A stretch of 32,000 bases of DNA, taken from Candidatus Thalassarchaeaceae archaeon (GTDB taxonomy: Archaea; Thermoplasmatota; Poseidoniia; Poseidoniales; Thalassarchaeaceae). Under the pieces are notes generated by a model. That model was not told where the DNA came from. It saw nothing but the letters and a program-made list of their open reading frames with translations, and ran no database searches. The stretch's first letter is position 1. The number at the start of each line of letters is the position of its first letter. The stretch spans positions 1,050,001 through 1,082,000 of the forward strand of contig JBJLBP010000001.1 of assembly GCA_045568075.1 (NCBI GenBank). The letters are read 5' to 3'. The translations under genes and the position numbers were made by a program. Of this stretch, positions 1,065-25,306 are shown piece by piece.

Positions 1065-1068
1065 TTAC

Positions 1069-1074: not shown

Positions 1075-1206
1075 ATGGAAGGAGCCCGATGCTCCGTCTT
1101 ATGATGATTGTGCGAGATACCTCACGCACTGAATGTCGTAGGTTGATTCAGCAATGAATCATGGAGAGAGCTTACGCTCTATTCTCGTTGTACCCAAAGG
1201 TAGGGT

Positions 1207-1238: not shown

Positions 1239-1260
1239 GTTTTCGTCGACTGAACTGGGT

Positions 1261-4200
1261 TCAGTCGTCCTTTCGGCGGCCTGCAAGGCCGACTCCGATT
1301 GCCGCTCCTAGGAGCGCCAGAGTCGAGATGATTCCTGTGAATCCAGGGACGTTCTCGCGGAAGTTGTCGAATCCTGTGTTGGTTTCAGTGTTGTCTCCAA
1401 CAACTGTCTCATCTACACTGTCATCGATTGCATCGCAGATTCCGTCTTGGTCGTAATCGACTGGAACGCTGTCTGCCTTCTCAGGGTTCGAACCGCACGC
1501 GTCCTCATCCTCATCGGAGTAAGTGTCGCCGTCGTCGTCGTCGTCGGCATTGTTACCGATTCCATCGCCGTCAGTGTCGATCCACTCGTTGATGTCGTAT
1601 GGGAACGCATCGCTAACGTCTGGTGAGCTGTCACCATCGTCGTCAGTGTCAGCATTGTCGCCAACTCCATCGCCGTCGTAGTCAGAAGTCTCCTGTGGGT
1701 TCAGCGGGAAGGCGTCGTCGACATCAGCGACTCCGTCGCCGTCATCGTCCTCATCGGTGTTGTCACCAATGCCATCTTCATCGCTGTCAATCCACTCAGT
1801 GGAATCCATTGGGAAGTCGTCGATTCCGTCATTCACACCGTCGCCATCGTCGTCAGCGTCAGAGTTGTCGCCCTGACCGTCGCCATCGCTATCCATCCAC
1901 TCGGATGGGTCCTCTGGGAACGCATCATCCACGTCAGCATAGCCATCGCCGTCGTCGTCGTCATCAGCATTGTTGCCGATTCCATCGCCGTCGTCGTCAG
2001 CCCACTCGCTTGAGTCTAGTGGGAATGGATCTGCAACGTCTGCAACACCGTCACCGTCGTCGTCTGGGTCCTTGTTGTCGCCCAGCATGTCGCCGTCGGT
2101 GTCATCCCACTCACTTGCGTCTAGTGGGAAGGCATCATTCGCATCTTCAACTCCGTCATCGTCGTCATCGGTGTCAGCATTATCGCCGGTTCCGTCGCCG
2201 TCGGTGTCGACCCACTCATTTGCATCGAATGGGAAGTCGTCTAGACCATCGGTCACGCCGTCATCGTCGTCGTCAGCATCAGCATTGTCGCCGGTTCCAT
2301 CGCCGTCGTTATCGGCGACTTCACTCGCATCGAGTGGGAACGCGTCAGTGTCGTCATCGACTCCGTCGTTGTCGTCGTCGCTGTCCATGATATCGCAGAT
2401 GTGGTCGCCCTCGAAGTCATCTGGTGTCGAATTAGCTACTAGCGGATCTGATCCACAGGTTGCCTCGTCGTCGTCACTCCAGGTGTCATCGTCGTCATCC
2501 TCGTCGAGGGTGTAGGCAGCTGGGTCACAAGGGGTGCCGTTCAAGTTGTTAGCACCTAGAGTGTCAGCCAGTCCATCACCATCGGTGTCGGTGCTGAGAC
2601 ATGGATCTAGTGGATCCAAGTCATCATCGTCGAGCACACCGTCGTTATCGTCGTCAGTGTCGAGGTTCGTGACATAGGTTGGCCACGAGACTGTGACGTC
2701 ATCAAGCCAGACTGTGTCTGCATTGCCATCGACGATTGAGTCCTTGAAGTAGACCCAGTGGAAGTCGTGGGTTCCTGCAGCAACATTGTGCGTGTAGGTT
2801 CCAGAAGTCAATCCGGACCAGCGAGCCACGTATCCTGACGTGCGAGTGCAACTTGTCGTGTCGACACAGAAGACTAGGAAGTCCCAGTTTCCTTCAGTCG
2901 ATACATCGTAAGCGAAGCTAATCGAAGCCATGTCGGCGATTCCGTCACCATCGGTGTCGGTGTCGTTGATCATGTTCCCTACGGTAGCAGACAGCCATGT
3001 GTCCTGACTTCCACCGATGTCTCCGCTCTCAGCCGAATACATTCCGCTGATGACATTCGTGCTCTGGACGAACCATAGAGCGTCACCCGAAGTTGACCAG
3101 AATCCGCCTATTGAGCCAGATTCGAAGTCTCCCTGGAATGCAGCAGGCGAGGTGTAATCCGCGATTCCGTCGCCATCAGTGTCGACAGACATTGTGCTGT
3201 CGAATGGGAAGGCGTCGTCTTCGTCGAGCACACCGTCGTTGTCGTCGTCTGGGTCAGCGTTGTCTCCAGCACCGTCACCATCGAAGTCGAAGCAATCGGC
3301 TGGGTCGTTCGGCAACTGGTCGACTGTGTCGTTGCAACCATCGTTGTCATCGTCGTCGTCAGCATTGTCGCCGATTCCGTCACCATCTGCATCAGAAGTC
3401 TCGGTCGGATCAAGTGGGAACTCGTCGTTGAGATCGTAGGTTCCGTCGTTGTCGTCATCAGTGTCTTGGATGTCACAATATCCGTCACCATCGCTGTCTA
3501 GGTATTCCGAAGCATCAAGCGGACAGTCGTCGTTAACGTCGAGCCATCCGTCGTTGTCGTCATCTGGGTCTGTGTCCAGACCGTCAGACTTGACCACCAC
3601 GTTGTCGAGGTATATCGCCTCTGAACCGGAGTTCGAAGCGAATTCGACAAGTAGGTATCCTGTGCCATCAACCTCGCCTGCGACTGTCGTCCAAACTCCC
3701 TCGTATGCTGGGAAGTCGGTGTCGATGTCGTAGCCGTTGGTGTCCAAGAGAACCGTTGTTGTGGTTCCAACCCAAGAGACTGTGATGTAATCAGAGGTCT
3801 CCCAGCCGGTGCTTGCAACGAATAGGTCGAGCGATACATGGTCTGCGTCAGATACTGATCCTGTCATCCACTGAATGATTCCGTCAGAGTCCGACATCTG
3901 GTATCCTTGGTCGCCGTCTGTGAAAGCACCGACAGTCGAGGCATAGTTAGTGACACCGAAGTAGTCACCATCAGTCAGACCATTGCTACCGGTCGAGATG
4001 TATGAAGCCGTGTAGCCGAGGTCACCAGGGGTTACTGTTGCAGAGAATCCAACCATCTGGTAGCTCGCACCGCCAGTGAATGGATCGGCATCCTGTGACC
4101 AAGTGTAAGTTCCAGCCTCAGTCCATGGACCCCATGTATTTCCACCATTGCTAGCCCAGGCAGTGTAGGAGTCACCGTCGTCAGCTGCCATCAGCAGGTG

Positions 4201-6354
4201 ACCAGATGGACCAGTCAGGGACATTGCGTGGTACGCGTAGGTGTAACCAGAGACGATGGAAGCAGACAGCGTCTCACCCTCAGCGAGAGTGAAGCTGCAG
4301 GTGAACGCGTATCCAGTTAATCCACCAGTCGTACAAGCGGTGTAGCTCGCCGAGTCGTAGTTGACTGAAGGTTCGCCAGCGTTGTTCGCTAGAGTGTGGT
4401 TAACCGACGAGTTACCTGTGTCGGTATACATTCCACTTGCACTAGCAGGCGCCTCGAAGGAGATTGTTCCAACGACTGCACCGCAGGAGTTGATTGCATC
4501 CTGACTGTCAGGCATGCCATCTCCGTCGGTATCGACGCTTGCACAGGCATTGTTCTGCCAAACGTCTGGGTTGTCGTTGACTCCATCGCCATCGTCGTCG
4601 TTATCGGCGTTGTCGCCGACTCCGTCGCCATCAAGGTCAGATGATTCTGTGTCGTCGTTCGGGAATGCATCGTTGATGTCCCAAACTCCGTCTCCGTCGT
4701 CATCGTCGTCGCGAACTAGAGTGCTGGTGCATCCTGCAACCAATGTGTCAGGCTTACCGTCGCTGTCTGAATCAGTGTCTGCACACTCGTCTAGTGAGAA
4801 TGCATCGTCGACATCTAATGTGCCGTCACCGTCATCATCAGTGTCAGCATTGTTACCAGTGCCGTCACTGTCTGTATCGACCCACTCATTGACATCATCA
4901 GGGAATACATCCGCAGTGTTGGCGTATGAGTCACCGTCGCGGTCACTGTCTAGTGCGTCACAGGTCAGATCTGCGTCAATGTCTCCTGGTGTGCTGGAGG
5001 AATCGAGTGGATCTGCTGTTGAAGCATAGGCGCCACCGTCGTCACAGTTGGTTGTTTCATCAAGATCTGTGTAACCGTCTGCGTCGTCATCGTAGTCGAG
5101 TAGAGTTCCGTAAGGCGTCACAGTAGCAGCAACTGTTCCAGTGATGTAGGTGTAGGAAGCCTGTACCCAGCAGACACCGTAGAATGAGGATGGGTTGCAT
5201 CCGTCACCATAGGAGTCGTAGTAGTAGATGGTGTACGAACCAGCAGTGGTCAATGTCGCGACTGCGTAATTACCACCGCTGCCGAATCCTGAGTATGAGG
5301 TACTCGTGCCAGATGGATCTGTAATGACCAAACCAGCCTCGCTTCCCCAACTACCTGTGTTCAGCGTGACATCTAGTGTCTCGCCAGCGGGCAGAGTGAA
5401 AGAGCACTCTGCGTCCTCGTAGCTGTTGATTGGGTTCGAGTTAGTGTCACTAGACTGAACCGCGATGTATCCGCCGACTGGCTGGTCTGGGTAGGTCGTG
5501 TAGGAAGTGCTGTACCAAGTCGAACCAGTGCAGAGTTGCACAGTCGAGGTAGATACCTGAGTTAGACTGTCGTGCAGCGTATCTGCAGCGCCATCACCAT
5601 CGGTGTCATTCCACGCGTGGGTGTCGAAGGCAAAGGCATCAGCAGTGTCGAGGTAACCATCGTTGTCATCGTCAGTGTCGACGTAGTCACAGAGGTTGGT
5701 AGCACCTGTTGCATCGCTTGGCAGAACTGAGTCGCCATCGTTGTCGCTTGGTGTGCTCGAAGCACTGTAACGGTCAGTCATACAGGCAATCTCGTAGACA
5801 TCGTCCCATCCGTCATTGTCGTAGTCCAGTGGGTATGTGTCATCGCCGTCTGGAGTGCCGTCGCCGTCGTCGTCAGAATCGTCGTTGTTTCCGATACCAT
5901 CGCCGTCGTCGTCTCGCCACTCGCTGGAGTCATCTGGAGCCCAGTCGTCAACGTCGTCAGTTCCGTCACCATCGTCGTCGGTGTCGGCGTTGTCGCCGGT
6001 TCCGTCGCCGTCGGTGTCAGTCGTCTCAGACGAGTCCAGTGGGAAGTCGTCGTAGGCGTCAAGGACACCATCGCCGTCATCGTCCGTGTCTTCGGTCAGA
6101 GTTGTAGTGCAACCGCTGACGATTGAGTCAGGCATTCCGTCTCCATCTGTGTCGACATTAGCACAAGCATCGGATGGGAAGGCATCTTCGTTGTCTCCCA
6201 TTCCGTCAGCGTCTGTGTCATCCCATTCTGATGCATCGAGTGGGAACTGATCGTTTAGATCATCATCACCGTCATCATCAGTGTCAGTGTCTAGTGGATC
6301 TGTTCCAGCTGTTGCCTCATCTGTGTCAGATACTCCGTCACCATCGTCATCCAA
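1261..6354 (-). CDS. C-terminal block of a giant Asp-rich surface protein: TSP3-like Ca-binding repeats, beta-rich lectin-like modules and a PGF-CTERM anchor
   Basis: 1697-aa track ORF in which Asp is by far the commonest residue. It has dozens of DxDxDGxGDNxDxDDDGDG loops (thrombospondin type-3-like). These are interrupted by non-acidic modules (AGSYTIYYYDSYGDGC; GDFESGSIGGFWSTSGDALW...WLDDVTVSW, jelly-roll/MAM-like by eye). It ends in PGF + TM + RRKDD. The track start is a TTG (6354..6352) and the frame stays open upstream to TAG 6415..6417. There is no signal peptide, so this is not a real N-terminus. Confidence 0.85.
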   Translation of the reverse strand: MDDDGDGVSDTDEATAGTDPLDTDTDDDGDDDLNDQFPLDASEWDDTDADGMGDNEDAFPSDACANVDTDGDGMPDSIVSGCTTTLTEDTDDDGDGVLDAYDDFPLDSSETTDTDGDGTGDNADTDDDGDGTDDVDDWAPDDSSEWRDDDGDGIGNNDDSDDDGDGTPDGDDTYPLDYDNDGWDDVYEIACMTDRYSASSTPSDNDGDSVLPSDATGATNLCDYVDTDDDNDGYLDTADAFAFDTHAWNDTDGDGAADTLHDSLTQVSTSTVQLCTGSTWYSTSYTTYPDQPVGGYIAVQSSDTNSNPINSYEDAECSFTLPAGETLDVTLNTGSWGSEAGLVITDPSGTSTSYSGFGSGGNYAVATLTTAGSYTIYYYDSYGDGCNPSSFYGVCWVQASYTYITGTVAATVTPYGTLLDYDDDADGYTDLDETTNCDDGGAYASTADPLDSSSTPGDIDADLTCDALDSDRDGDSYANTADVFPDDVNEWVDTDSDGTGNNADTDDDGDGTLDVDDAFSLDECADTDSDSDGKPDTLVAGCTSTLVRDDDDDGDGVWDINDAFPNDDTESSDLDGDGVGDNADNDDDGDGVNDNPDVWQNNACASVDTDGDGMPDSQDAINSCGAVVGTISFEAPASASGMYTDTGNSSVNHTLANNAGEPSVNYDSASYTACTTGGLTGYAFTCSFTLAEGETLSASIVSGYTYAYHAMSLTGPSGHLLMAADDGDSYTAWASNGGNTWGPWTEAGTYTWSQDADPFTGGASYQMVGFSATVTPGDLGYTASYISTGSNGLTDGDYFGVTNYASTVGAFTDGDQGYQMSDSDGIIQWMTGSVSDADHVSLDLFVASTGWETSDYITVSWVGTTTTVLLDTNGYDIDTDFPAYEGVWTTVAGEVDGTGYLLVEFASNSGSEAIYLDNVVVKSDGLDTDPDDDNDGWLDVNDDCPLDASEYLDSDGDGYCDIQDTDDDNDGTYDLNDEFPLDPTETSDADGDGIGDNADDDDDNDGCNDTVDQLPNDPADCFDFDGDGAGDNADPDDDNDGVLDEDDAFPFDSTMSVDTDGDGIADYTSPAAFQGDFESGSIGGFWSTSGDALWFVQSTNVISGMYSAESGDIGGSQDTWLSATVGNMINDTDTDGDGIADMASISFAYDVSTEGNWDFLVFCVDTTSCTRTSGYVARWSGLTSGTYTHNVAAGTHDFHWVYFKDSIVDGNADTVWLDDVTVSWPTYVTNLDTDDDNDGVLDDDDLDPLDPCLSTDTDGDGLADTLGANNLNGTPCDPAAYTLDEDDDDDTWSDDDEATCGSDPLVANSTPDDFEGDHICDIMDSDDDNDGVDDDTDAFPLDASEVADNDGDGTGDNADADDDDDGVTDGLDDFPFDANEWVDTDGDGTGDNADTDDDDDGVEDANDAFPLDASEWDDTDGDMLGDNKDPDDDGDGVADVADPFPLDSSEWADDDGDGIGNNADDDDDGDGYADVDDAFPEDPSEWMDSDGDGQGDNSDADDDGDGVNDGIDDFPMDSTEWIDSDEDGIGDNTDEDDDGDGVADVDDAFPLNPQETSDYDGDGVGDNADTDDDGDSSPDVSDAFPYDINEWIDTDGDGIGNNADDDDDGDTYSDEDEDACGSNPEKADSVPVDYDQDGICDAIDDSVDETVVGDNTETNTGFDNFRENVPGFTGIISTLALLGAAIGVGLAGRRKDD
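1264..1347 (-). other. PGF-CTERM-type archaeosortase (ArtA) sorting signal
   Basis: The last 28 codons are PGF-TGIISTLALLGAAIGVGLAG-RRKDD-stop: a Pro-Gly-Phe tripeptide (1339..1347), one hydrophobic helix, then a short basic cluster at the extreme C-terminus. This is the tripartite layout of the PGF-CTERM family. Confidence 0.65.
1505..2350 (-). repeat. 8 tandem 105-bp (35-aa) TSP3-like units
   Basis: Eight consecutive units of (D/A)FPxDxxEWxDxDGDGxGDNxDxDDDGDGxxDxxD, from DAFPLDASEVADNDGDGTGDNADADDDDDGVTDGLD to AFPYDINEWIDTDGDGIGNNADDDDDGDTYSDEDE. They are diverged at nucleotide level, so the array is old. Confidence 0.8.
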
Positions 6355-6694
6355 GTCAAGGACGGTTCCAGCAGCGCTGGACGGATGGTGTTGCTGTGTC
6401 GCATCGTTAGAGTGCTAATTGAGCGCTGTCTGTGCACCGTGCTCCACATGAACTCGAGTGTAGTGATGACCATATGAATCCTGCAGATGCTCAGGAGTAC
6501 GGTCGTGTAGATCGAGTACGTAGCCGAGCAACTAGTCTAGCGCGCCCTCGCTTCCGAGCAGTAGGAATAACCGTGTTGTGAATGACACAGCCTGAGCCTC
6601 CACTGGCAGGTAACTGTGCAGTTCCATGCTCTCACCGTCACCATAGACTGTCAGCGATTGTTAGACTCGAGACTCGGTAATGTGACTGAGACTG
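6355..6694 (-). pseudogene. degenerate coding remnant linking ORF 6695..7909 to ORF 1261..6354
   Basis: No intact ORF. The frame of ORF 1261..6354 read upstream gives QSLTVYGDGESMELHSYLPVEAQAVSFTTRLFLLLGSEGALD-TAG-LLGYVLDLHDRTPEHLQDSYGHHYTRVHVEHGAQTALN-TAG-HSNDATQQHHPSSAAGTVLDLDDDGDG. This resembles the intact modules TYGDGGMSISVEDTTPPANAIAMVSL (ORF 28518..30821) and DSYGDGCNPSSFYGVCWVQASYTYITGTVAATVTPYGTLLDYDDDADG (ORF 1261..6354) in sequence and spacing. In-frame stops lie at 6532..6534 and 6415..6417, and an apparent extra base at about 6646. Confidence 0.55.
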
Positions 6695-7909
6695 TCACAG
6701 TGGGAAGTCGTCTGCCAGTCCGTCACCATCGGTGTCGGTCCAGGCATCCACGTCATTGTCGAATGCATCCACATCGTCTGCGTAACCATCGTTGTCGTCG
6801 TCGGTGTCAGCGTTGTCGCCAGTTCCGTCGCCGTCGTAGTCAGTAGTCTCACTCGAGTCGAGTGGGAATGCATCACTTGTGTCAACAACTCCGTCGCCGT
6901 CGTCGTCATCGTCGAGCGTGTTGCAAGACATGTCGCCATCGGTGTCGGTTGGTGTGTCACTCGAGTCTAGAGGATCGTTGCTCTCTCCACAGTTGGTGCT
7001 CTCATCGTCGTCAGAGAATCCATCGCCGTCGTCGTCGGTGTCAGCATTGTTGCCGGTTCCGTCGCCGTCAGTGTCCAGAGTCTCAGCCGAGTCTAGTGGG
7101 AACGCATCGCTTGCGTCGTCCACACCGTCACCGTCGTCATCTGTGTCAGCATTGTTTCCAATGGTGTCACCGTCTGTGTCATCCCACTCGCTTGGGTTGT
7201 TAGGGAACTGATCGGTAGCATCTGGGTCTCCGTCGCCGTCATCATCTGTGTCGACGGTGTCTTCGATTCCGTCTCCGTCATCGTCGGAGTCAGCATTGTG
7301 TCCCCATCCGTCGCCATCAGCATCGTACTGCTCAGTCGAGTCTAGTGGGAAGTCATCATCAGTGTCTGCGACACCATCTGCGTCGTCATCAGTATCTTCG
7401 TTGTTACCGATACCATCAGAGTCAGTGTCAACCCACTCATCAGAGTCAGCTGGGAAAGCATCAGAGCTGTCAATCCAGCCGTCGCCGTCATCATCGGTGT
7501 CGGCGCTGTTGATTATGCCGTCTCCGTCTAGATCGCCGTCCGGGTTCAGTGTGACTGCGGAAGTTGCAGCGCTCGCTGGGATGACTGTCGAGGAATCGCC
7601 AGTCGCATCAGTGTGGACTACAGTTACAGTGTAGGTCTTACCGAGCACACTGCAAACCGCCGTGCTCTCGCACGATGGAATCGTGTATGTGCTCGAAGTT
7701 GCTCCGGAGATGTCTCCGTCAGCATCTGCCCACTGGTAAGCGAACGTGCCCATGCCGTCGTCGTCTGTTAGAAGACTGGTGTCTGCAGTCAGAACTTCGT
7801 CGTCATACGCGTCGCCAGATATCTGGATGTAGGTTGTTGCAATTGTTCCGTCCTCGATGACGATTGTAGCATAGTTACCACCGTCTCCGTAGCTATCAGT
7901 TACTACCAT
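6695..7909 (-). CDS. internal block of the giant surface protein: YGDGG module end, Ig-like YQW module, TSP3-like repeats
   Basis: 404-aa track ORF. It begins mid-module (MVVTDSYGDGGNYATIVIEDG) with no signal peptide. It contains GTFAYQWADADGDISGATSSTYTI (Ig-like YQW...GATSSTYT pattern), then about 8 TSP3-like units, and ends DGDGLADDFPL-TGA. Confidence 0.8.
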   Translation of the reverse strand: MVVTDSYGDGGNYATIVIEDGTIATTYIQISGDAYDDEVLTADTSLLTDDDGMGTFAYQWADADGDISGATSSTYTIPSCESTAVCSVLGKTYTVTVVHTDATGDSSTVIPASAATSAVTLNPDGDLDGDGIINSADTDDDGDGWIDSSDAFPADSDEWVDTDSDGIGNNEDTDDDADGVADTDDDFPLDSTEQYDADGDGWGHNADSDDDGDGIEDTVDTDDDGDGDPDATDQFPNNPSEWDDTDGDTIGNNADTDDDGDGVDDASDAFPLDSAETLDTDGDGTGNNADTDDDGDGFSDDDESTNCGESNDPLDSSDTPTDTDGDMSCNTLDDDDDGDGVVDTSDAFPLDSSETTDYDGDGTGDNADTDDDNDGYADDVDAFDNDVDAWTDTDGDGLADDFPL

Positions 7910-8085
7910 CAGAGTAAGTGCCTGCAGTGGTAATCAGCGTAGGAGTCCAGTGTAGTACCAGCCTGTAGCCCAAGCTGAAGCAGTGCCGTCAATCTATAGA
8001 CCACACTCGCTCGCGAGTAATCAGTCGTAGGTCAACGTAATCGTAGGCCCTCTGAAGGCTCGTGATGGTCAGACTGTAGGTGCTA
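7910..8085 (-). pseudogene. frame-scrambled remnant of a YGDGG-type module
   Basis: Pieces of one module lie in alternating minus-strand frames: STYSLTITSLQRAYDYVDLRLITRE / IDGTASAWATGWYYTG / TLITTAGTY / LMVVTDSYGDGGNYATIVIEDG. There is an in-frame TGA at 7989..7991. Joined, they parallel GSFSIMSGSTAEVTYTCDYWCPYETSVDIDKPDGTTDSWAVGS...TDAGTYTVTMEDTYGDGGMSISVED of ORF 28518..30821. Confidence 0.55.
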
Positions 8086-16057: not shown

Positions 16058-19000
16058 GCATCAGAAATTGTGATTGTGATAGTTGCCTGGTCAGAATCAC
16101 TAGCATCCAAAGCGGCAACAACCAATGTGTACGAAGTTGTAGTCTCGTAATCTATGTCACCGCTGTCAGCGACTGTGACCGCTCCGCCAGTAGATATAGC
16201 GAATGGACCAGTGCCATCTCCATCAGAATCAGTGTTACCTGAGATAATGGATACAGAGGAAGCTGTTCCTTCTGTGACTGCAGCAGTTACGACTGCGGCA
16301 CTGTTTGCCGCACTCTCACTCAGTGTAGCTGATGCATCGGCGATAGACAATCCGACATCAGTTACAGAGGCTGTGAAAGTCTGTGTAGCAGCATCATTAG
16401 TGCCGTCATCGATGACCACTGTGAACTCGTAGTTGTTGTCAGTGTCAGCATCAGCTGGAGCCTCGTAATTGGTAGTTGCTGCGTAAGTCAGCGATACAGT
16501 AGTACCTGAGATTGAACAGGTAATATCATCCTTGTCCGCACCCGCGAGAGTACACGAGTAAGAACCGACCGTGTCGGTGTCAACAATGGTGTATGTCTCG
16601 AAGGCACCAGTAGCCATTTCAGCGGAGCTAGGTGTCGAATCGACGCCTGTGAAAGTAGGTGTCTGGTCGTTAACGTCGGTAATTGATATTGTGAATGCCT
16701 CAACGTAAGCAGTGTTACTGCCATCAGCGACCTTCACGTAAACTGTGTAGGAAGTTGTGGTCTCGTAATTGAATCCGGGGCTGGATCCGACCTCGAGTAT
16801 AGCACTGTCAATTGCGAAGTCCGTGCCGCTGTATGCGGTGGCCCCACCAGAGTCGGTTACTAGCGTGTAGACGTGAGCGTTACCGGATGCGTCACCGTCT
16901 GTTGTAGACAGAGTTCCAATGTCCGTGCCAGCGGCTGCATTCTCAGCTGCACTGGTTGCGGATAGTGCCATGTCAGTGGGCGAGTTATCGTTGACGTTGG
17001 TCACCGTCACAGTGATTGTGTTGGTGTCGGATTGGCTGTTGGCCGTAGCCGTTACAATGACCGTGCAGGTGTTGGAGTTGTCACTGGCACCGCAGCCCGG
17101 ATCCTCAAAGTTCGGAGCAGAGGAGAAAGTCAGCACTCCGTTGGACGAGCCGATGGAGAACAGGTCGCTATCAGTACCTGATATCGTGTAAGTGATGGTG
17201 TCGCTTTCTGCATCAGTGGCCGTGTAGGTGCCGACGGCCTGTTGGTTCTCCGCGGCATCGACTGCGGTGGTTGCAACCGAGAATGCCGGTGCGTCGTCGA
17301 CGGCGTTGACCGTGATGGCCACTGTGTCGGCGGCGCCGTCGGCCCCGTCGTTGGGGGTCATGGTGAGGACCGCGTTGGTGTTGCTGTTGCTGGCGCTGGT
17401 CCAGGTGATGGTGGCTATTGCCAAGTTGATGTTGGCAACCGTGCCAGAGAAGACCATCGCGTTGTCAGCCGTACCGTCGCCGGTCGTGAAACTCAAGCCA
17501 GTGGTCTGAGCGAGCGAGTAGGTGCCGGATTGGGTGGAGGACATGGTGAACGAGTCCATCGAGGTGTCGTCGACATCCGCGATGGCGGATCCAGTGATGG
17601 AAATCGCTGTGTCCTCATTCCCTGAGACATCATCTGCGCTGACGCTCCAGGTCGGCACGTCGTTGACTGCCGCGAAGCTGGTCGTCATGACGTACGCGGC
17701 GCCGCTGGCCGTGTCGCTATCAGAGACCTTGTAGCTGAACGTGATGTCATCGGAGGCGTCGGCCGCGGGAGCCAGCTTCAGGTGCTGGATGTTGGCGTTG
17801 AGGATGACATCGTTGACCGCAACATCGGTCCATGATGAGCCGTCGGCAGACTTGGTGAGTGTGCCGGAGGACTCGAGCGCAGTGATCGTGATCGATACCA
17901 AGGCGCTGTCACCGCCGTCCACGTCAGTATACGGGAAGTCCGCTACCACGTAACCGGTGAAGGTGGTGTCCTCAGTCCCGGCCTGCGTCGATGGTGTGGA
18001 CGAAGTCGGTGCGTCGTTGGCTCCAGTAACGGTCACTGTAATGGTAACCGAGTCAGTGGTGCCAGCGCCATCTGAGACGACTGCAGTTAGAGTATCTGTT
18101 GGCGTGTCCTCGGGATCGAGTGCTTGGGTGTCGTCATCAGCATCGTCGATGGTCCATGTCCATGCTCCAGTAGCCTCTGTCAGAACCCAGTCACCATAGG
18201 TGCCCTCCTTTGTCTGTGTGTCGCCGGCATCGGTGCAGCCGCTGCACGACCATGTCAGAGTGTCGGAGTCGGCATCAGTTGCAACTAGCGTGTCGCCTGC
18301 GGCGCCACCAGAGTTCTCGGTGACGGCTCCAGTGTTGTCAGAGTCTGCGGCAACAGGGTCGTCGTCCACTGCTTGGTAGGTCATTGTGAATGTACCAGCG
18401 GAAGCTGCCCATGCATCGCCATCGTTCACGTTGAAGGTGAAGGTGACTGCGCCGTTCGCGTTGGATACTGGCACGTATGTGAGGCCGCCAAGGTTGCCCA
18501 CAGCGATATCCTGTCCTTGAGTTACGTCAGCATTTGAGTATCTCAGAGTGCCCGTTGCGGGTAGAGTAGTAATATCCACAGTCACTAGTGCGTCACCGGA
18601 GTCCACGTCGGAGTATCCCCAGTCGCTAGCGGTTGTGGTGAAGGTGTGCGTGGCGTCCTCATTCGGCGTAGCGCTGCCGCCAGAGGTGGTCGGAGCATCA
18701 TTGGTGTTCGAGATGACTATGTCGAAGTCGTCGTTCACGGAGGCCGCGCCGTCGGAGCAGGTCGTCCTCACGGAGAGTGTGCCGACGTTTGCGTTGAGTG
18801 GCGTACCGCCGTAGTTGCGGGAATTTGCGGTGAAGGTCAGCCATCCTGGCAGCGCACTTCCATCGGTCTGGGTGGACGTGTATGTGCACGCGGTACCCTC
18901 GACATCGGTGAAGACGTTTGCAGCGAAGGTGTAGTCGAGTACTGCGTCCTCGTTCACCGCTTGATTGGATTGTTCGTTGGCGACGGTCGGTGCGTCGTTC

Positions 19001-22000
19001 ACGGCCGCGAAGCTGGTCGTCATGACGTATGCGGCGCCGCTTGCCGTGTCGCTATCCGAGACCTTGAAGCTGAACGTGATGTCAGCGACCGCATTGGATG
19101 CGGGAGCCAGCTTCAGGTGCTGGATGTTGGCGTTGAGGATGACATCGTTGACCGCAACATCGGTCCATGATGAGCCGTCGGCAGACTTGGTGAGTGTGCC
19201 GGAGGACTCGAGCGCAGTGATCGTGATCGATACCAAGGCGCTGTCACCGCCGTCCACATCGGTGTACGGGAAGTCGGAGACGGCGTATGTGTACGTGTTG
19301 TCCTCAGTTCCAGATTCGGAACCGGCGGAGGAGGTCGGGGCGTCGTTGGCTCCAGTAACGGTCACTGTAATGGTAACCGAGTCAGTGGTGCCAGCGCCGT
19401 CTGAGACGACTGCAGTCAGAGTATCTGTTGGCGTGTCCTCGGGATCGAGTGCTTGGGTGTCGGAATCAGCATCGTCGATGGTCCATGTCCATGCTCCAGT
19501 AGCCTCTGTCAGAACCCAGTCACCATAGGTTCCCTCTTTTGTCTGTGTGGCGCCACCATCGGCACAGCCGCTGCACGACCATGTCAGAGTGTCGCCGGAG
19601 TCGGCATCAGTTGCAACTAGCGTGTCGCCTGCGGCGCCACCAGAGTTCTCGGTGACGGCTCCAGTGTTGTCAGAGTCTGCGGCAACAGGGTCGTCGTCCA
19701 CTGCTTGGTAGGTCATTGTGAATGTTCCAGGGGAAGCTGACCATGCATCGCCATCGTTCACTTTGAAGGTGAAGGTGACAGCGCCGTTCGCGTTGGATAC
19801 TGGCACGTATGTGAGGCCGCCAAGGTTGCCTATTGCGATGTCTTGCCCTACGGTTACGTCAGCATTTGAGTATCTCAGAGTGCCCGTTGCGGGTAGAGTA
19901 GTAATGTCCACAGTCACTAGTGCGTCGCCGGAGTCTACGTCAGTATATCCCCAGTCGCTAGCGGTTGTGGTGAAGGTATGCGTGGCGTCCTCATTCGGCG
20001 TAGCGCTGCCGCCAGTGGTGGTCGGAGCATCATTGGTGTTCGAGATAACTATGTCGAAATCGTCGGTTACTGAGAGAGTTCCTGCGCCATCATCGGTTGC
20101 AGTGACTCTGATCGTAATTGTACCAACGCCACCATTCAGAGGCGTGCCGCTGAATGTCCTAGAACCGGCATTAAAGCTTAGCCAGCTGTCTGATAGAGTA
20201 GATAGTGCGTTACCGTTTGACAGCGCTGCGGTGTAAGTCAGAGTATCGCCTTCTACATCGGTGAATGAACCACCTGCGAACTGGTAAGAGAGCGCTGAGT
20301 CCTCATTGACTGCTTGGTTGACCAGAGCGCTGGCTACTACCGGTGCATCGTTTTCAGCAGCGAAACTGGTCGTCATGACGTATGCGGCGCCGCTTGCCGT
20401 GTCGCTATCCGAGACCTTGAAGCTGAACGTGATGTCAGCAACCGCATTGGCTGCGGGAGCTAGCTTCAGGTACTGGATGTTGGCGTTGGTGATGACATCG
20501 TTGGCCGCAACATCGGTCCATGATGAGCCGTCGGTAGACTTGGTGAGTGTGCCGGAGGACTCGAGCACAGTGATCGTGATCGATACCAAGGCGCTGTCAC
20601 CCCCGTCCACATCGGTGTACGGGAAGTCGGAGACGGCGTAAGTGTACGTGGTGTCCTCGGTTCCAGATTCGGAACCGGCGGAGGAGGTCGGGGCGTCGTT
20701 GGCACCGGTGACGGTAACCGTCACGGTGATCGAGGCAGTGGTACCACCGCCGTCTGAGACGACTGCAGTCAGAGTATCTGTTGGCGTGTCCTCGGGATCG
20801 AGTGCTTGGGTGTCGGAATCAGCATCGTCGATGGTCCATGTCCATGCTCCAGTAGCCTCTGTCAGAACCCAGTCACCATAGGTTCCCTCTTTTGTCTGTG
20901 TGGCGCCACCATCGGCACAGCCGCTGCACGACCATGTCAGAGTGTCACCGTCGACATCGGATGCGACGAGTGTGTCACCTGCGGCGCCGCCGGAGTTTTC
21001 GGTGACGGCTCCGGTGTTGTCGGAGTTGGCGATAGTCGGGTCGTCATCGGCTGCGATGACGTTGACTGTCGAAGCAAGTGCAACTGTTACCGAATCGTCG
21101 CCAGAGTTGGCCGTGCCACCATTGTCCTGTAGTGTGGTGATAGTGATCACGCGGTCTGCGACATCAGTCGGGCTCTGATCGGTGTTCTTGTAGGCTAGAG
21201 CATTGATTAGAGTCTCCATCGCAGCCTCAGAAATACCGCCTGCATCAGCAGTCCAGGTGACTGTCGATGTGGCGCCGTCAACAGTTACAACTGCGGCACC
21301 AGAGTTGGTGGCGGTATTGGCAACGCAGGTCGCAGCCGTTGCGAGCAGACAGTCGGAGCCGTCTATCACAAGATACTCAGATGTGTCAGCGACGTTAGTC
21401 ACAGTAACTATGATTTTGAGATATGTCTGAGTTACTGTAGCATCAGAGTCAGCAGCAGCTGCAGAAGTGAACAGAGCTAGATTGCTTCCGTCCTCTGTGA
21501 AGTCGCCGGTCCCTATTCCTGATGCGGTCAGAGTGGGTTCGTCGTTGACTCCAGTGATTGTGATTGTATAGGTGTCCAGAGTGGTCGATACGGTGTCGGA
21601 CATCGTGATGTCGCAGGTGTGGTCGCCTACTCTGGCGTCAGTGATCTCACTCGCATCCGCTGTGAGTGCGCCTGTGGATGCGCCGCCGTTGTTCGTAACG
21701 GTGACCCAGTCAGGGCAAGTGGTACCCTCGGCGAATGTCACTTCGGTGCCCTCTTCGTCTGTAGCGGTCAGAGTGATGCTCAGAGCAGCTCCCTCGAGGA
21801 CGCTTCCTGCATCGACGGCACCGCCTCCGGTGTCGCCAGAGAGGTAAGGTGCGTCGTTGACCGCTGTCAGAGTGATTACGAACACGTCGGTAGCAGTTAG
21901 CGTTCCCGCACCATCGTCTGTAGTGGTACAGATGACGTTGTAGGTGCTGTCCGAATCATCGGAAGAAAGTAGATTTGCAGAAGCAGGAGTACCGGAAATT

Positions 22001-23874
22001 GTAGCCGAACCGCTTCCACCATCGCTGACTGCTATCCAGCCAGGTAGTGCGGAAGTGGCAGATCCAGCATTGTTCCTCTCCAAGCAAGTGATGGTCAAGT
22101 CGTCGTTATCTACGTCAGTTGAGGTGGCTGTGGCGAAACTGTAAGCCACATCCTCGTAAACCGTTTGATCGGCTGTTGCACCTGCACTAGGAGCATCATT
22201 AGCCGCTGATATGGTAATGGTCATTGTTCCAGTGGCTGAGTAGGCCTCACCGTCGTAGACCTGGTAAGTGAAAGTGTCTTGCCCGTTGTAGTTGGAAGAG
22301 CCAGTGTAGAACAAGTCGTCGAGGTTGGCTAATAGAATTACATCATTGGCCTCGCAAGCCGCGCTACCTTGAGTTGCACATGCGTTCTCATCGTCATCGG
22401 TCAGGGTACCTTGAGATGGTAGTGTGATCAACTTAACCGCTGTCATTGCATCTCCAGAGTCCACATCGCTGTAGCCCCAGTCACTGGATGCGGTCCACGA
22501 AACATATGCTGTATCCTCGGCTACGGTGGCGGTATCGCCAGCGTTCGAAGGTGCGTCATTGGTATTGGAAACCACTATGTCGAAGTCGTCGTTGACTGCG
22601 GAGGAGCCGTCATCAGTGCAGGTAGTCCTCACATTGACTGTGCCGACATCACCGTTAGCGGGAGTGCCGCTGTAAGTCCGTGTATTGGCTGTGAATGTTA
22701 GCCAGCTAGGTAAGGCGGCACCACCAGTTGTAGTGGAGGTGTATGTGCAGGAGTCTCCTGAGTCAACATCAGTGAACACGTTTGAGGCGAACTGGTATGA
22801 GAGTGCGGCGTCCTCGTTGACTGCCTGATTGTCCTGAGCATTAGCGACGGTTGGTGCGTCGTTAACTGGAGTCACAGAAATGGCCATTGTAGCTGCGGAG
22901 GTAGACCAAGCAGCTCCATCGTAAACATAGAAAGTGAATGAGTCGCTTGCTACCGAGTTGAGAGTTGTGGTGTAGAATAGATCATCCAACTTGGCTAGAA
23001 CGATGACGTCATTGATAGCACAGGCTGTTCCTGCACCACAAGCATCCTCATCGTCGTCAGTGAGGACACCATTGCTGGGTAGTGATGCAAGTTTGATTTG
23101 TGTCATTGCAGAGGATTCCGTGTCGCTGTATCCCCAGTCAGTGGATGCGGTCCATGAGACATACGCTTGGTCTTCAGTTACAGTAGCGGTGTCGCCAGCT
23201 GAAGTTGGAGGGTCGTTGACTGCTCCAACGGTAATCGCAACAGTGTCTGTAGTGCTGTCTCCGTCACCGTCGTTTGCAGTTAGTGAAAGCACGGCGTTGG
23301 CATTGGAGTTTGATGCACTAGTCCAAGTGATTGTGGCAATAGCCGTGTTGATGTTAGCTACTGTTCCTCCGAACACCATTGAGCTGTCGTCAGTACCATC
23401 ACCAGAAGCGAAAGAAAGACCAGATGTTGATGCTAGCGTAAATGTTCCACTCTGTGTGGTTGATATTGTCATCGAGTCGAGTGTGGTGTCATCGACATCT
23501 GCGATGGTTGAGCCAGTAATGTCTACCGCAACGTCCTCATTAGGTGCGACATCGTTAGCGGTGCCGCTCCATGTTGGAACATCGTTGACAGCTGACACCG
23601 TTGTTGTGAATACGTATGCAGGACTCAATGCCTGACTGTCATAGACCTTGAAACTAAATGTGACATCAGCTACACTGTTCGTAGCTGGTGTGAGTCTGAC
23701 ATGAGCACCGTCTGCGACATAATCGTCAGCTGCACAGTCGGCCCATGCTCCCCCTACTCCATTTGCATTGTAGCATTCCAAGTCTCCAGTACTCTCCAGA
23801 GTAGTGATGTGGAGTCTGTGTCCACGCAGTGTCGACATCGTCAACATCAGTGAAACTGAAGTCACTAGTTGCAA
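14218..23874 (-). CDS. largest fragment of giant adhesin: NDAP-delimited Ig/cadherin-like, He_PIG, VCBS-like and cadherin-like modules
   Basis: 3218-aa uninterrupted track ORF. The first ~20 residues are off-frame, and real sequence resumes at LHITTLESTGDLECYNANG. Modules are delimited by (V/T)NDAP/NDVP/NDQTP: VCBS-like (GTYGDWVLTEATGAWTWTIDDAD), He_PIG (ALPSWLTFTANTRTYSGTPANGDVGTVNVRTTCTDDG), ~100-aa adhesin repeats (TEDTTYTYAVSDFPYTDVDGGDSALVSITITVLESSGTL...ITFSFKVSDSD), then cadherin-like units. The tail ESPADDWHRQRLRHHYRFL is off-frame after the 14262 insertion. Confidence 0.9.
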   Translation of the reverse strand: MQLVTSVSLMLTMSTLRGHRLHITTLESTGDLECYNANGVGGAWADCAADDYVADGAHVRLTPATNSVADVTFSFKVYDSQALSPAYVFTTTVSAVNDVPTWSGTANDVAPNEDVAVDITGSTIADVDDTTLDSMTISTTQSGTFTLASTSGLSFASGDGTDDSSMVFGGTVANINTAIATITWTSASNSNANAVLSLTANDGDGDSTTDTVAITVGAVNDPPTSAGDTATVTEDQAYVSWTASTDWGYSDTESSAMTQIKLASLPSNGVLTDDDEDACGAGTACAINDVIVLAKLDDLFYTTTLNSVASDSFTFYVYDGAAWSTSAATMAISVTPVNDAPTVANAQDNQAVNEDAALSYQFASNVFTDVDSGDSCTYTSTTTGGAALPSWLTFTANTRTYSGTPANGDVGTVNVRTTCTDDGSSAVNDDFDIVVSNTNDAPSNAGDTATVAEDTAYVSWTASSDWGYSDVDSGDAMTAVKLITLPSQGTLTDDDENACATQGSAACEANDVILLANLDDLFYTGSSNYNGQDTFTYQVYDGEAYSATGTMTITISAANDAPSAGATADQTVYEDVAYSFATATSTDVDNDDLTITCLERNNAGSATSALPGWIAVSDGGSGSATISGTPASANLLSSDDSDSTYNVICTTTDDGAGTLTATDVFVITLTAVNDAPYLSGDTGGGAVDAGSVLEGAALSITLTATDEEGTEVTFAEGTTCPDWVTVTNNGGASTGALTADASEITDARVGDHTCDITMSDTVSTTLDTYTITITGVNDEPTLTASGIGTGDFTEDGSNLALFTSAAAADSDATVTQTYLKIIVTVTNVADTSEYLVIDGSDCLLATAATCVANTATNSGAAVVTVDGATSTVTWTADAGGISEAAMETLINALAYKNTDQSPTDVADRVITITTLQDNGGTANSGDDSVTVALASTVNVIAADDDPTIANSDNTGAVTENSGGAAGDTLVASDVDGDTLTWSCSGCADGGATQTKEGTYGDWVLTEATGAWTWTIDDADSDTQALDPEDTPTDTLTAVVSDGGGTTASITVTVTVTGANDAPTSSAGSESGTEDTTYTYAVSDFPYTDVDGGDSALVSITITVLESSGTLTKSTDGSSWTDVAANDVITNANIQYLKLAPAANAVADITFSFKVSDSDTASGAAYVMTTSFAAENDAPVVASALVNQAVNEDSALSYQFAGGSFTDVEGDTLTYTAALSNGNALSTLSDSWLSFNAGSRTFSGTPLNGGVGTITIRVTATDDGAGTLSVTDDFDIVISNTNDAPTTTGGSATPNEDATHTFTTTASDWGYTDVDSGDALVTVDITTLPATGTLRYSNADVTVGQDIAIGNLGGLTYVPVSNANGAVTFTFKVNDGDAWSASPGTFTMTYQAVDDDPVAADSDNTGAVTENSGGAAGDTLVATDADSGDTLTWSCSGCADGGATQTKEGTYGDWVLTEATGAWTWTIDDADSDTQALDPEDTPTDTLTAVVSDGAGTTDSVTITVTVTGANDAPTSSAGSESGTEDNTYTYAVSDFPYTDVDGGDSALVSITITALESSGTLTKSADGSSWTDVAVNDVILNANIQHLKLAPASNAVADITFSFKVSDSDTASGAAYVMTTSFAAVNDAPTVANEQSNQAVNEDAVLDYTFAANVFTDVEGTACTYTSTQTDGSALPGWLTFTANSRNYGGTPLNANVGTLSVRTTCSDGAASVNDDFDIVISNTNDAPTTSGGSATPNEDATHTFTTTASDWGYSDVDSGDALVTVDITTLPATGTLRYSNADVTQGQDIAVGNLGGLTYVPVSNANGAVTFTFNVNDGDAWAASAGTFTMTYQAVDDDPVAADSDNTGAVTENSGGAAGDTLVATDADSDTLTWSCSGCTDAGDTQTKEGTYGDWVLTEATGAWTWTIDDADDDTQALDPEDTPTDTLTAVVSDGAGTTDSVTITVTVTGANDAPTSSTPSTQAGTEDTTFTGYVVADFPYTDVDGGDSALVSITITALESSGTLTKSADGSSWTDVAVNDVILNANIQHLKLAPAADASDDITFSYKVSDSDTASGAAYVMTTSFAAVNDVPTWSVSADDVSGNEDTAISITGSAIADVDDTSMDSFTMSSTQSGTYSLAQTTGLSFTTGDGTADNAMVFSGTVANINLAIATITWTSASNSNTNAVLTMTPNDGADGAADTVAITVNAVDDAPAFSVATTAVDAAENQQAVGTYTATDAESDTITYTISGTDSDLFSIGSSNGVLTFSSAPNFEDPGCGASDNSNTCTVIVTATANSQSDTNTITVTVTNVNDNSPTDMALSATSAAENAAAGTDIGTLSTTDGDASGNAHVYTLVTDSGGATAYSGTDFAIDSAILEVGSSPGFNYETTTSYTVYVKVADGSNTAYVEAFTISITDVNDQTPTFTGVDSTPSSAEMATGAFETYTIVDTDTVGSYSCTLAGADKDDITCSISGTTVSLTYAATTNYEAPADADTDNNYEFTVVIDDGTNDAATQTFTASVTDVGLSIADASATLSESAANSAAVVTAAVTEGTASSVSIISGNTDSDGDGTGPFAISTGGAVTVADSGDIDYETTTSYTLVVAALDASDSDQATITITISDANDQTPSVSVASTYSHAEAAATTFQTYTITDSDTSGTYTCTLGGDDAADFSASISGKVCTVVWAAAPNYESPADDDTNNVYDITIAFSDGTNDLAAQTTAVTVTDVNDQTPSVSVASTYSHAEAAATTFQTYTITDSDTSGTYTCTLGGDDAADFSASISGKVCTVVWAAAPNYESPADDDTDNVYDITIAFSDGTNDLAAQTTAVTVTDANDQTPAVSVASTYSHAEAAATTFQTYTITDSDTSGTYTCTLGGDDAADFTASISGKVCTVVWAAAPNYESPADDDTDNVYDITIAFSDGTNDLAAQTTAVTVTDVNDQTPSVSVASTYSHAEAAATTFQTYTITDSDTSGTYTCTLGGDDAADFTASISGKVCTVVWAAAPNYESPADTGTNNVYDITIAFSDGTNDLAAQTTAVTVTDVNDQTPSVSVASTYSHAEAAATTFQTYTITDSDTSGTYTCTLGGDDAADFSASISGKVCTVVWAAAPNYESPADDDTDNVYDITIAFSDGTNDLAAQTTAVTVTDTNDQTPAVSVASTYSHAEAAATTFQTYTITDSDTSGTYTCTLGGDDAADFSASISGKVCTVVWAAAPNYESPADDWHRQRLRHHYRFL
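17640..21050 (-). repeat. supra-repeat, about 2.5 x 1.34 kb (445-451 aa, each unit = VCBS-like + adhesin repeat + He_PIG + adhesin repeat)
   Basis: The landmark gcgaa(g/a)ctggtcgtcatgacgta occurs at 17672, 19007 and 20360, with spacings 1335 and 1353 bp. At protein level, units start DDDPTIANSDNTG / DDDPVAADSDNTG / DDDPVAADSDNTG. A more diverged older copy of the same module order lies at 21,050..25,000. Confidence 0.8.
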
Positions 23875-24022
23875 AAGTCACTAGTGTGTCTTCATCCGTA
23901 GATCCTGAACCTGTACTAGAGGTCGGTGCATCGTTAGCACCAGTGATTGTGATTGTAATGACGATGGTGTCAGTTGCACCGCTGCCATCAGTGGCAGTCG
24001 CCGTTATTGTTTCTTGTGACAT
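23726..24022 (-). CDS. fragment of giant adhesin isolated between two frame breaks
   Basis: SQETITATATDGSGATDTIVITITITGANDAPTSSTGSGSTDEDTLVTFATSDFSFTDVDDVDTA matches the later in-frame sequence TDTLTAVVSDGGGTTASITVTVTVTGANDAPTSSAGSESGTEDTTYTYAVSDFPYTDVDGGDSA. The tail (WTQTPHHYSGEYWRLGMLQCKW) is off-frame. Confidence 0.75.
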   Translation of the reverse strand: MSQETITATATDGSGATDTIVITITITGANDAPTSSTGSGSTDEDTLVTFATSDFSFTDVDDVDTAWTQTPHHYSGEYWRLGMLQCKWSRGSMGRLCS

Positions 24023-25260
24023 GCCTCAGCATCGTTAAGTGAATCCAGGTCGTTATCAACATCGGAAGGGGTGTAGACCCAACCACCGGTTGCCTCGGTT
24101 AGAACCCAACTTCCGTAGGTATCGGTTAGTGTCTGAGTGTCTCCTGCATCAGTACAACCTACACACGACCAGGTTGGTGTGTCGCCAGTATCGGCATCAG
24201 TAACTACGAGAGTATCGGAAACAGTACCGCCAGCATCTTCTGTATACGCACCAGTATTGTCGGAATTCGCAATTACTGGGTCATCGTTAGAGTTGGCTAC
24301 AGTAACTGTAGCTGCAATCGAAACAGTTACGGAGTCGTCGCCCGCACCAGTAGTGCCGCCGTTATCCTTCAGAGTGGTGATTGTTACCACACGGTTGTTG
24401 GCAACTGATGGTGAGTCGTCTGTGTTCTTGTAGGCTAGAGCATTGATTAGAGTCTCCATCAAAGCCTCAGAGATTCCCTCGCCATCGCCAGTCCATGTGA
24501 GTGTTGCAGTAGTACTGTCCATGGTAACTACAGCAGCACCGGAGTTAGTTGCAGTGTTAGCTACACAAGTAGCAGCAGCAGTGATGTCACAGTCTGAGCC
24601 ATCGATAACGATGTACTCTTCCTCGTCCACAACATTTGTGATAGTAATCACAATTGCCTCGTAAGTCTGAACTACTTGTGAATCGGAATCAGTAGCAGCA
24701 GCACTAGAGAAAAGTGCGAAATTTGATCCGCCTTCAGTGAACGTGCCTGATGCCCCGGTTGCAGAAAGGGTAGGCTCGTCGTTCACTTGAGTAACAGAAA
24801 TGGTGTATGAAGCCTGAACAGTTTCACCGCCAGAGACACCCTGGATGGTTATTGCAGTTCCACCAGTTACATGAGCATCAGTAGGAGTTCCAGTGATGGT
24901 TGCAGTAGAATCACTGTTGTCCGTAAAAGTCATCCAAGAATGACAGGAAGTGCATGATAGAACAACAGTGGTCCCATCAGGATCGTTCCACTGTACCGTC
25001 GAGCTATAGGCGACGTCTTCGGTGGAGGAGGTCGTCGGTGTTGTGACGGCGAATGGCGGCACAAACCTAGCATCTTGAGTATCTTCAAGAGCGCTAACGC
25101 TAGCGCTACCGCTATCGAAGATTTGGCCTGCAACTAGGATGAGTGTGATCGCTGCGGCAAGGCCGATTGCGACGTTCCTTAGGTCATTCGATGTCAGGTT
25201 CTTCTGGTTTGTATGGCTCACTGTAGTGAGCGGCACGGCTGCAACCATGTTGGTTCCCAC
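24004..25260 (-). CDS. N-terminal fragment of giant adhesin with signal/anchor helix
   Basis: 418-aa track ORF. The track start is GTG 25260 and an ATG lies at 25248 (MVAAVPLTTVSH...). A single N-terminal hydrophobic helix follows a basic residue: R-NVAIGLAAAITLILVAGQIF (25117..25173). Then come beta-rich modules and a VCBS-like unit (TYGSWVLTEATGGWVYTPSDVDNDLDSLNDAEA) cut short by a frame break. It is the only export signal upstream of 1261. Confidence 0.85.
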   Translation of the reverse strand: MGTNMVAAVPLTTVSHTNQKNLTSNDLRNVAIGLAAAITLILVAGQIFDSGSASVSALEDTQDARFVPPFAVTTPTTSSTEDVAYSSTVQWNDPDGTTVVLSCTSCHSWMTFTDNSDSTATITGTPTDAHVTGGTAITIQGVSGGETVQASYTISVTQVNDEPTLSATGASGTFTEGGSNFALFSSAAATDSDSQVVQTYEAIVITITNVVDEEEYIVIDGSDCDITAAATCVANTATNSGAAVVTMDSTTATLTWTGDGEGISEALMETLINALAYKNTDDSPSVANNRVVTITTLKDNGGTTGAGDDSVTVSIAATVTVANSNDDPVIANSDNTGAYTEDAGGTVSDTLVVTDADTGDTPTWSCVGCTDAGDTQTLTDTYGSWVLTEATGGWVYTPSDVDNDLDSLNDAEACHKKQ

Positions 25261-25271
25261 GTCTTTCTTGC

Positions 25272-25306
25272 ATTTAGAAGGTTACGGTACCCACCCTATA
25301 GGGTGG
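25272..25306 (-). promoter_or_regulatory. candidate promoter of the giant gene: perfect 16-bp palindrome plus TATA-like box
   Basis: The minus strand reads CCACCCTATAGGGTGG (25306..25291), then 11 nt, then TTCTAAAT (25279..25272), then 23 nt, then ATG 25248. The TATA-like centre sits about 27 nt from the ATG, which fits a leaderless or near-leaderless archaeal mRNA. Confidence 0.4.

Follow-up and report, generated by a model that had tools for sequence, protein, structure and literature searches.

The question raised by this locus is whether eight open reading frames (ORFs) lying head to tail on the minus strand are separate genes or the pieces of one giant surface-protein gene and, in the latter case, whether the breaks between them reflect decay of the gene or errors in its assembled sequence. 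The ORFs lie in a 32,000-nt stretch (hereafter the window) of contig JBJLBP010000001.1, assigned to a Candidatus Thalassarchaeaceae archaeon; the best named protein matches were likewise to Candidatus Thalassarchaeaceae, that is, Marine Group II (MGII) b. Our preferred reading, to which we give a probability of about 80 %, is that 25260..1261 on the minus strand holds one adhesin gene and that its seven breaks (J1–J7) are residual single-base errors of a long-read-based metagenome assembly. Leftover consensus or assembly errors, and not true gene decay, are thus the most probable cause.

One gene in eight pieces

The eight minus-strand ORFs (24004..25260, 23726..24022, 14218..23874, 10569..14438, 8246..10792, 8086..8325, 6695..7909 and 1261..6354) were all confirmed at these coordinates. 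Joined, they would form the following gene.

1261..25260, minus strand: reconstructed single gene of ~7,990–8,000 codons, predicted to encode a giant acidic cell-surface adhesin
25117..25173, minus strand: N-terminal hydrophobic helix, putative signal or signal-anchor (residues 30–48, VAIGLAAAITLILVAGQIF), kept in P0122 and P0123
1264..1350, minus strand: C-terminal tail VPGFTGIISTLALLGAAIGVGLAGRRKDD, with a PGF motif, a membrane helix and a basic cluster (RRK)

Counted from the start codon, GTG at 25260, through the last sense codon, the gene measures 23,997 nt, giving the codon number above after repair, and an annotated orthologue (P0122) starts at the same GTG. The pooled composition of the eight products was 16 % T, 15 % D, 13 % A and 9.5 % S. 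A hydropathy scan of all eight returned two membrane-helix-like segments, at residues 29–50 of the first ORF and in the last 25 residues of the last ORF. The original prediction that only the first ORF has an N-terminal helix and only the last a C-terminal anchor helix was thereby borne out, as was the lack of any signal or membrane helix in the internal pieces, whose beginnings are out-of-frame junk. Alignment to intact homologues likewise showed domains running on across every junction.

Reading frame was also assessed without homology, by training a codon-usage model on the long ORFs and tracing a Viterbi path over 25400..1150. The path changed frame at the seven junctions only, with multiple changes within 8103..7907 and within 6706..6386, and never within the long ORFs, indicating that these hold no hidden compensated shifts of any length.

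Orthologous loci in other MGII genomes

The gene downstream of the ORFs (678..1064, minus strand) encodes aIF5A. A scan for aIF5A, with one genome per species, yielded 80 MGII loci. In about 30 MGII metagenome-assembled genomes (MAGs) and single-cell genomes, one frame directly upstream of aIF5A stayed open as far as the contig or the retrieved flank extended. Lengths of open frames in this position were at least 3,283 aa (L006), at least 3,298 aa (L015), 3,211 aa (L019, complete), 2,379 aa (L028), 2,251 aa (L042) and 2,012 aa (L030). Four loci (L089, L090, L092 and L094) encode an aIF5A protein identical to that of the window and carry unbroken ORFs of 2,419–2,652 aa that span the equivalents of J7, J6 and J5; the first of these is 99.875 % identical to window 6395..1.

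Independent short-read contigs, 93–99.9 % identical to the window, were uninterrupted at J1, J2, J5, J6 and the right edge of J7. The disruptions were not reproduced in L086, L089, L090, L092, L094 or L096 at the junctions that each covers, all six coming from strains and samples other than the window's own, which makes this read-through test an indirect one. The ratio of non-synonymous to synonymous substitution rates (dN/dS) between the window and its relatives was 0.25 for the part downstream of J2; the C-terminal 1,000–1,300 codons gave 0.11, and aIF5A gave 0.06. Values of 0.11–0.25 indicate that the downstream pieces have been under purifying selection.

The earlier proposal of one ~24-kb surface-protein gene in pieces is upheld by the synteny, the uninterrupted orthologues, the near-identical short-read contigs that read through and the purifying selection downstream. 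At the sequence level, the eight pieces are confirmed as one predicted gene of ~8,000 codons. Related genomes might instead have shown the pieces standing alone as separate genes, but they show a single ORF.

In nearly every short-read MAG (L003–L043 and L088–L095), the contig ends inside the gene or has gaps of N beside J7. Within the window's own population, runs of N adjoin J7 in L088, L091, L093 and L095, and other contigs end in repeats. With contigs ending inside the gene or gapped at J7, hardly any public genome shows how long it truly is. The locus is evidently a systematic and general assembly trouble spot in MGII genomes.

A relative's nanopore/pilon contig from ENA (L001, kelso_4__contig_12334_pilon) showed the same synteny but was discarded as evidence, being riddled with frameshifts and carrying SRP54 in three pieces. 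It is an independent public example of the long-read frameshift artefact, housekeeping genes included. Three database proteins from short contigs (P0001, P0003 and P0008) carry unrelated terminal stretches (RSEEHTSELQS, IGRAHV and MYKRQ), presumably translated sequencing adapters, which they resemble; the alignments used here were unaffected.

Lesions at the junctions

The seven junctions comprise five isolated lesions and two scrambled segments, all on the minus strand. Extra bases are given in square brackets and deleted bases as hyphens.

24017..24022, minus strand: J1, GGC[A]TG[T]CAC, with two single bases that L086 lacks (unbroken there as ..LNDAEAAQETITATATDG..)
23815..23818, minus strand: J2, ACA[C]AGA, with a C that L086 lacks (unbroken there as ..DVDDVDTAWTRLYITTLESTGDL..)
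14258..14264, minus strand: J3, one extra G, by which the repeat unit starting at 14556 becomes 316 nt and not 315
10556..10590, minus strand: J4, two 1-nt deletions 23 nt apart, TACGG-TGCC ... CAGG-GCATGG
8333..8335, minus strand: J5, one extra base, GAC[T]CTGAC, within a He_PIG domain
7907..8170, minus strand: J6, frame-scrambled beta-sandwich cassette of ~100 aa, with ~19 single-base-scale indels and one TAG relative to L096
6379..6699, minus strand: J7, frame-scrambled second, paralogous cassette, with at least four frame changes as a minimum and 7–11 by homology-guided alignment

The JGI short-read contig L086 aligned to window 24968..21144 at 97.6 % identity with 91 mismatches. Indels were found at J1 and J2 only, and the encoded protein (P0121) is uninterrupted across both. 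The J3 site is polymorphic among repeat units, in which GAC is followed either by GACGAT or by ACTGGC. The J4 deletions, at the edge of a 324-bp array, were scored against six other repeat copies or their consensus. Equivalents of J5 were unbroken in P0238/L096, P0001, P0003 and L042. None of the isolated lesions lies in a homopolymer, and all except J4 are insertions; natural prokaryotic mutation is biased to deletions, the opposite of the insertion-rich lesions seen here. Examples of peptides that span repaired junctions are LNDAEA(A/S)QETITATATDG and GLPGDLTMSSAGVI.

Scrambled cassettes at J6 and J7

The two segments originally described as degenerate, 7910..8085 and 6355..6694, proved real, requiring at least three and at least four frame changes, respectively, just to dodge stop codons. 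Comparison with intact homologues identified the J6 and J7 segments as domain copies and not linkers, with the pattern ..GDGSPWT..ECG..TTAGTY..TDSYGDGG... The window's J6 copy could be traced over nine frame changes and one TAG, each fragment still resembling P0003. The TAG-TAG at 8083..8088, which might have been a conserved gene end, turned out to be an out-of-frame reading of GAT-AGT-AGC (Asp-Ser-Ser), and relatives continue in frame there. The J7 equivalents are also uninterrupted in relatives, and the relatives' copies at the J6 and J7 positions are paralogous to each other (P0238 vs P0016, 43 % identity, E=1e-18).

DNA alignment to L083, L084 and L085 (70–75 % identical) was too noisy for placing indels and was replaced by protein-guided frameshift-aware alignment and later by comparison with L096. 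The latter, a JGI short-read contig, was the closest J6 allele found, with ~93 % identity over 8535..7560. Against window 8199..7900 (300 nt) it showed 19 indel events and 29 mismatches; the flanks, 676 nt in all, had 44 mismatches and two indel events, J5 included. The odds ratio of J6 against its flanks was 22.8 for indels (p=1.3e-8), whereas that for mismatches, 1.6, was not significant (p=0.06). At the right edge of J7, there were four single-base insertions within ~80 nt relative to L094, and the insertion near 6381 was missing from all five other alleles.

Both cassettes are hypervariable among strains. At least three to four allele types were seen per cassette site (8500..7880 and 6745..6311; L088–L094, L096 and L085), with 60–75 % nucleotide identity and in-frame length differences of 21–63 nt, whereas the flanks are 99–100 % identical between strains. 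The J6 cassette is absent altogether in P0001/L085.

An AlphaFold model of P0238 had a mean pLDDT of 58 and was usable for the cassette only (70–85). The best structural matches of the modelled cassette were the C-terminal jelly roll of the Thermococcus subtilisin Tk-SP (E=7.6e-4), pre-peptidase C-terminal (PPC) domains and collagen-binding domains. The cassette may tentatively be assigned on this model to a PPC, collagen-binding or Tk-SP C-terminal-like jelly-roll fold. We further put forward, as a tentative idea that we hold at somewhat less than even odds, that the two paralogous jelly-roll-like cassettes of ~100 aa form a surface-diversity module swapped by recombination at strain level within one globally abundant MGIIb population. 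Such swapping would serve, for example, escape from viruses or grazers or the use of different binding targets, and would explain why assemblers fail here.

Consensus error or gene decay

The original prediction had named residual consensus indels as an alternative to inactivation, and this alternative is favoured by indel-only noise, by its location in repeats and strain-variable cassettes and by the frameshift in a neighbouring gene. The lesions have the character of an artefact, namely single-base, non-triplet indels in repeats and strain-variable segments on a contig where other genes are hit as well. The signs of a pseudogene, i.e. relaxed selection, dN/dS near 1 and substitutions rising with indels, were not found. 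The enrichment of indels without extra substitutions points to consensus noise over decay, because decay adds substitutions alongside indels and unpolished long-read noise is mostly indels. Single-base indels that break giant genes are known from other long-read assemblies (bioRxiv 10.1101/2023.11.21.568195).

If the breaks are such errors, correction of the long-read draft would have reached every place to which short reads or abundant sister strains aligned. It would have failed at J3 and J4, in the interior or at the edge of arrays where read mapping is ambiguous, and at J5–J7, whose alleles are peculiar to this strain. A background of roughly one indel per 4–5 kb outside the cassettes would account for J1, J2 and the +1 shift of the neighbouring gene.

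A real and very recent inactivation, in which the strain carries a dead giant adhesin gene, a dead neighbour and genuine frameshifts, appears improbable. At least seven disrupted sites and in-frame stops do stand in the sequence as given, single lesions also occur in the gene in relatives (a TAG in L086 and a 1-nt deletion in L096), and loss of a giant surface protein, costly and a phage target, is conceivable. However, ~19 indels per 300 nt with no significant rise in substitutions is unlike pseudogene decay, and the lesions are insertion-biased, lie outside homopolymers and coincide with repeats and strain-variable cassettes, while intact copies exist in the same population and dN/dS stays at 0.11–0.25 in parts that would supposedly be untranslated. 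Still harder to credit, and in our view scarcely worth entertaining, is the idea that each piece is a functional gene of its own, or that programmed frameshifting or phase variation links them. The ORF layout alone would suggest this, but the out-of-frame beginnings of the internal pieces, their want of a signal or membrane helix and the single ORF of the relatives speak against separate genes. Programmed frameshifting is at odds with shifts in both directions, up to ~19 per 300 nt, none of them in a slippery or repeat tract, and phase variation would need a switch, for which there is no homopolymer or simple sequence repeat tract.

A further explanation is a variant of the error reading and compatible with it, namely that the contig is chimeric. 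In that case, the J5–J7 consensus would mix co-occurring strains, and the gene would be real but its exact sequence (the cassette alleles and perhaps the repeat copy numbers) would exist in no single cell. The window matches an L093-type allele almost exactly at 8420..8200 and an L088/L089/L094-type allele at 7935..7880, where the L093 type differs; the stretch between 8200 and 7935 has 11-mers present in none of those alleles, and the J3 and J5 insertions resemble hybrids of two variants. However, L096 is a continuous allele near the window's J6, and a natural recombinant allele with indel noise explains the data equally well. Chimerism is a possible contributor, in our view less likely than not.

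Several points weigh against residual assembly error as the cause of the breaks. Their technical origin is inferred from assembled sequences. The argument from indels against substitutions carries full weight at J6 and the right edge of J7 only; over J7 the most similar contig, L094, is a different allele (~34 % mismatches), which makes the number of lesions there an approximation. Neither an exact nor a codon-degenerate scan of JGI metagenome contigs retrieved the J6 allele of the window itself. Window 5139..1 differed from the short-read MAG contig L003 by 255 mismatches and one in-frame 3-nt indel, with no frameshift, indicating that the background error rate is low and uneven. Lesions also occur in the short-read relatives themselves: L086 has a TAG (position ~3591) where the window has TAT (Tyr, ~21378), and L096 lacks one base near its 3′ end (window equivalent 7621). 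Both could be low-coverage errors or real population knock-outs.

Domain content and anchoring

The repeat regions of the reconstructed protein are as follows.

11317..16064, minus strand: array of 15 near-identical 315-bp (105-aa) units (Tandem Repeats Finder)
8592..10613, minus strand: array of 324-bp (108-aa) VCBS/cadherin-like units, 6.3 copies, 95 % (Tandem Repeats Finder)
1351..6354, minus strand: C-terminal region of ~2,000 residues of acidic thrombospondin-type-3 (TSP3)-like, putatively Ca-binding repeats (Pfam/NCBIfam and comparison with relatives)

The previously described 315-bp array was recovered with 15.1 copies and 93 % matches; the copy numbers of both arrays rest wholly on the assembly. 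Matches to Pfam and NCBIfam models comprised Cadherin_4 (187–195 bits; 12 matched stretches in one piece and 7 in another), He_PIG (97 bits), Big_9 (63–120 bits), Cadherin, tandem-95 (tand_rpt_95, 124 bits against a cut-off of 90) and VCBS (VCBS_repeat, 305 bits against a cut-off of 15.5), together with a partial match to the BapA/Bap/LapF adhesin model. Curated models were thus matched above cut-off in many tandem copies, as in tandem-95/VCBS/cadherin-like giant adhesins. This content and the export and anchor signals suggest a cadherin-like/VCBS/He_PIG/TSP3 cell-surface adhesin, with a probable adhesive function.

In the proposed arrangement, the N-terminal hydrophobic helix would direct export. 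The body would consist of cadherin-like, VCBS, tandem-95, He_PIG and Big_9 immunoglobulin (Ig)-like domains, including 15 units of 105 aa and six of 108 aa, followed by the two small hypervariable beta-sandwich cassettes and then the TSP3-like repeats. The tail of PGF, membrane helix and RRK would keep the protein on the cell, probably after processing by an archaeosortase.

Regarding the PGF-CTERM anchor originally proposed, the motif layout stands. A PGF is followed by a hydrophobic helix (by Kyte–Doolittle scan) and a basic cluster at the extreme C-terminus, and the PGF..GRR pattern is invariant in 31 MGII orthologues. The curated PGF-CTERM models (NCBIfam/TIGRFAM and Pfam) gave no match at E<=10 on the last 38 or 50 residues, and the tail matched PEP-CTERM only, at 12–13 bits and below its cut-off; HMMER filters readily lose short models such as PGF-CTERM. 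The anchor is accordingly called PGF-type by motif only. No archaeosortase (ArtA) gene was found within the 32-kb window.

Upstream region and neighbouring genes

Three further features lie upstream of the reconstructed gene.

25261..25350, minus strand: conserved, promoter-proximal block of ~90 nt before the GTG, containing the perfect palindrome CCACCCTATAGGGTGG at 25291..25306
25907..30821, minus strand: neighbouring surface-protein gene (~1,637 aa), with a predicted signal peptide and C-terminal membrane helix
31087..32000, minus strand: third surface-protein gene, cut by the window edge, with TSP3-like repeats, a membrane helix and a cytoplasmic tail

The upstream block is shared with a Candidatus Thalassarchaeum locus (L087), and the remainder of the 646-nt intergenic region is not conserved. 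From its sequence, the block may be a promoter or operator. The motif ATATAGAA also occurs within it. No RNA family was found in the window with Rfam.

A +1 frameshift at ~28559 divides the neighbouring gene into two ORFs, whereas its orthologue in L087 is a single ORF of 1,624 aa. Pairs of compensated frameshifts considered in it (~30140/30108 and ~29210/29175) were put down to noise in an alignment of 51 % identity. The neighbouring gene has several repeats of a ‘G.DAGD...DWY’ module, TSP3-like repeats and an acidic tail, and it also holds a further copy of the cassette domain. The cytoplasmic tail of the third gene contains a tandem repeat (31247..31377; 2.3 copies of a 57-nt unit) encoding EVPPPPPGFEDEVVEDNSE.

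Significance and comparison with known systems

Automatic annotation of this locus would give eight or more ‘hypothetical proteins’ or pseudogenes in place of one ~24-kb adhesin. MGII genomes have a size of roughly 2 Mb, and the adhesin gene may exceed 1 % of such a genome. The comparison also offers a recipe for recognizing artefacts without a reference: an excess of indels over substitutions relative to near-identical short-read contigs, combined with lesions in repeats or strain-variable cassettes. MGII archaea are uncultured and abundant, and the way in which they attach to particles or cells has yet to be worked out. Metaproteomics and population genomics would gain a concrete target in a complete model of their largest surface protein, including its conserved PGF-type anchor and its hypervariable, putatively binding cassettes. 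The gene itself is of an already known adhesin type; if any feature merits further study, it is the hypervariable cassettes.

The closest parallel in domains is with the bacterial VCBS/cadherin-like/tandem-95/Bap-LapA adhesins, which the window protein resembles also in its huge size, its acidic Ca-binding type and its near-identical Ig-like arrays; the orthologue P0122 is annotated as a ‘tandem-95 repeat protein’. Bacterial giant adhesins use type-1 secretion, with an N-terminal retention module and a C-terminal RTX signal. The window protein differs from them in its archaeal host, its C-terminal anchor of PGF and membrane helix and its N-terminal hydrophobic helix, and has, in addition, an extended TSP3-like stretch towards the C-terminus and a pair of hypervariable cassettes resembling jelly rolls. 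With substrates of PGF-CTERM/archaeosortase A, such as the Haloferax volcanii S-layer glycoprotein, it shares the three-part layout of the tail, although the curated models are unmatched in it.

Halomucin (Hmu) of Haloquadratum walsbyi, a planktonic euryarchaeon, is a giant (9,159 aa), highly acidic, repetitive extracellular protein. The likeness to the window protein is one of size class and general character; the window protein has a different domain repertoire and a C-terminal membrane anchor. The original claim of exceptional size holds insofar as ~8,000 codons is large, but the gene is no archaeal record, since archaeal proteins of >10,000 aa have been reported (bioRxiv 10.1101/2023.11.21.568195).

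Within the same lineage, proteins with thrombospondin type 3 repeats are widespread in Candidatus Poseidoniales and have been proposed to take part in cell adhesion (Rinke et al. 2018, PMC6461757). That study shares lineage and repeat type with the present locus, but records the presence or absence of thrombospondin genes and not this locus, its size or its cassettes. The artefact itself has its parallel in West-Roberts et al. (bioRxiv 10.1101/2023.11.21.568195), where single-base indels ended giant ORFs early and short-read correction was required. Their cases were mostly Omnitrophota genes encoding >30,000 aa, whereas the errors proposed here cluster in strain-variable cassettes and repeats.

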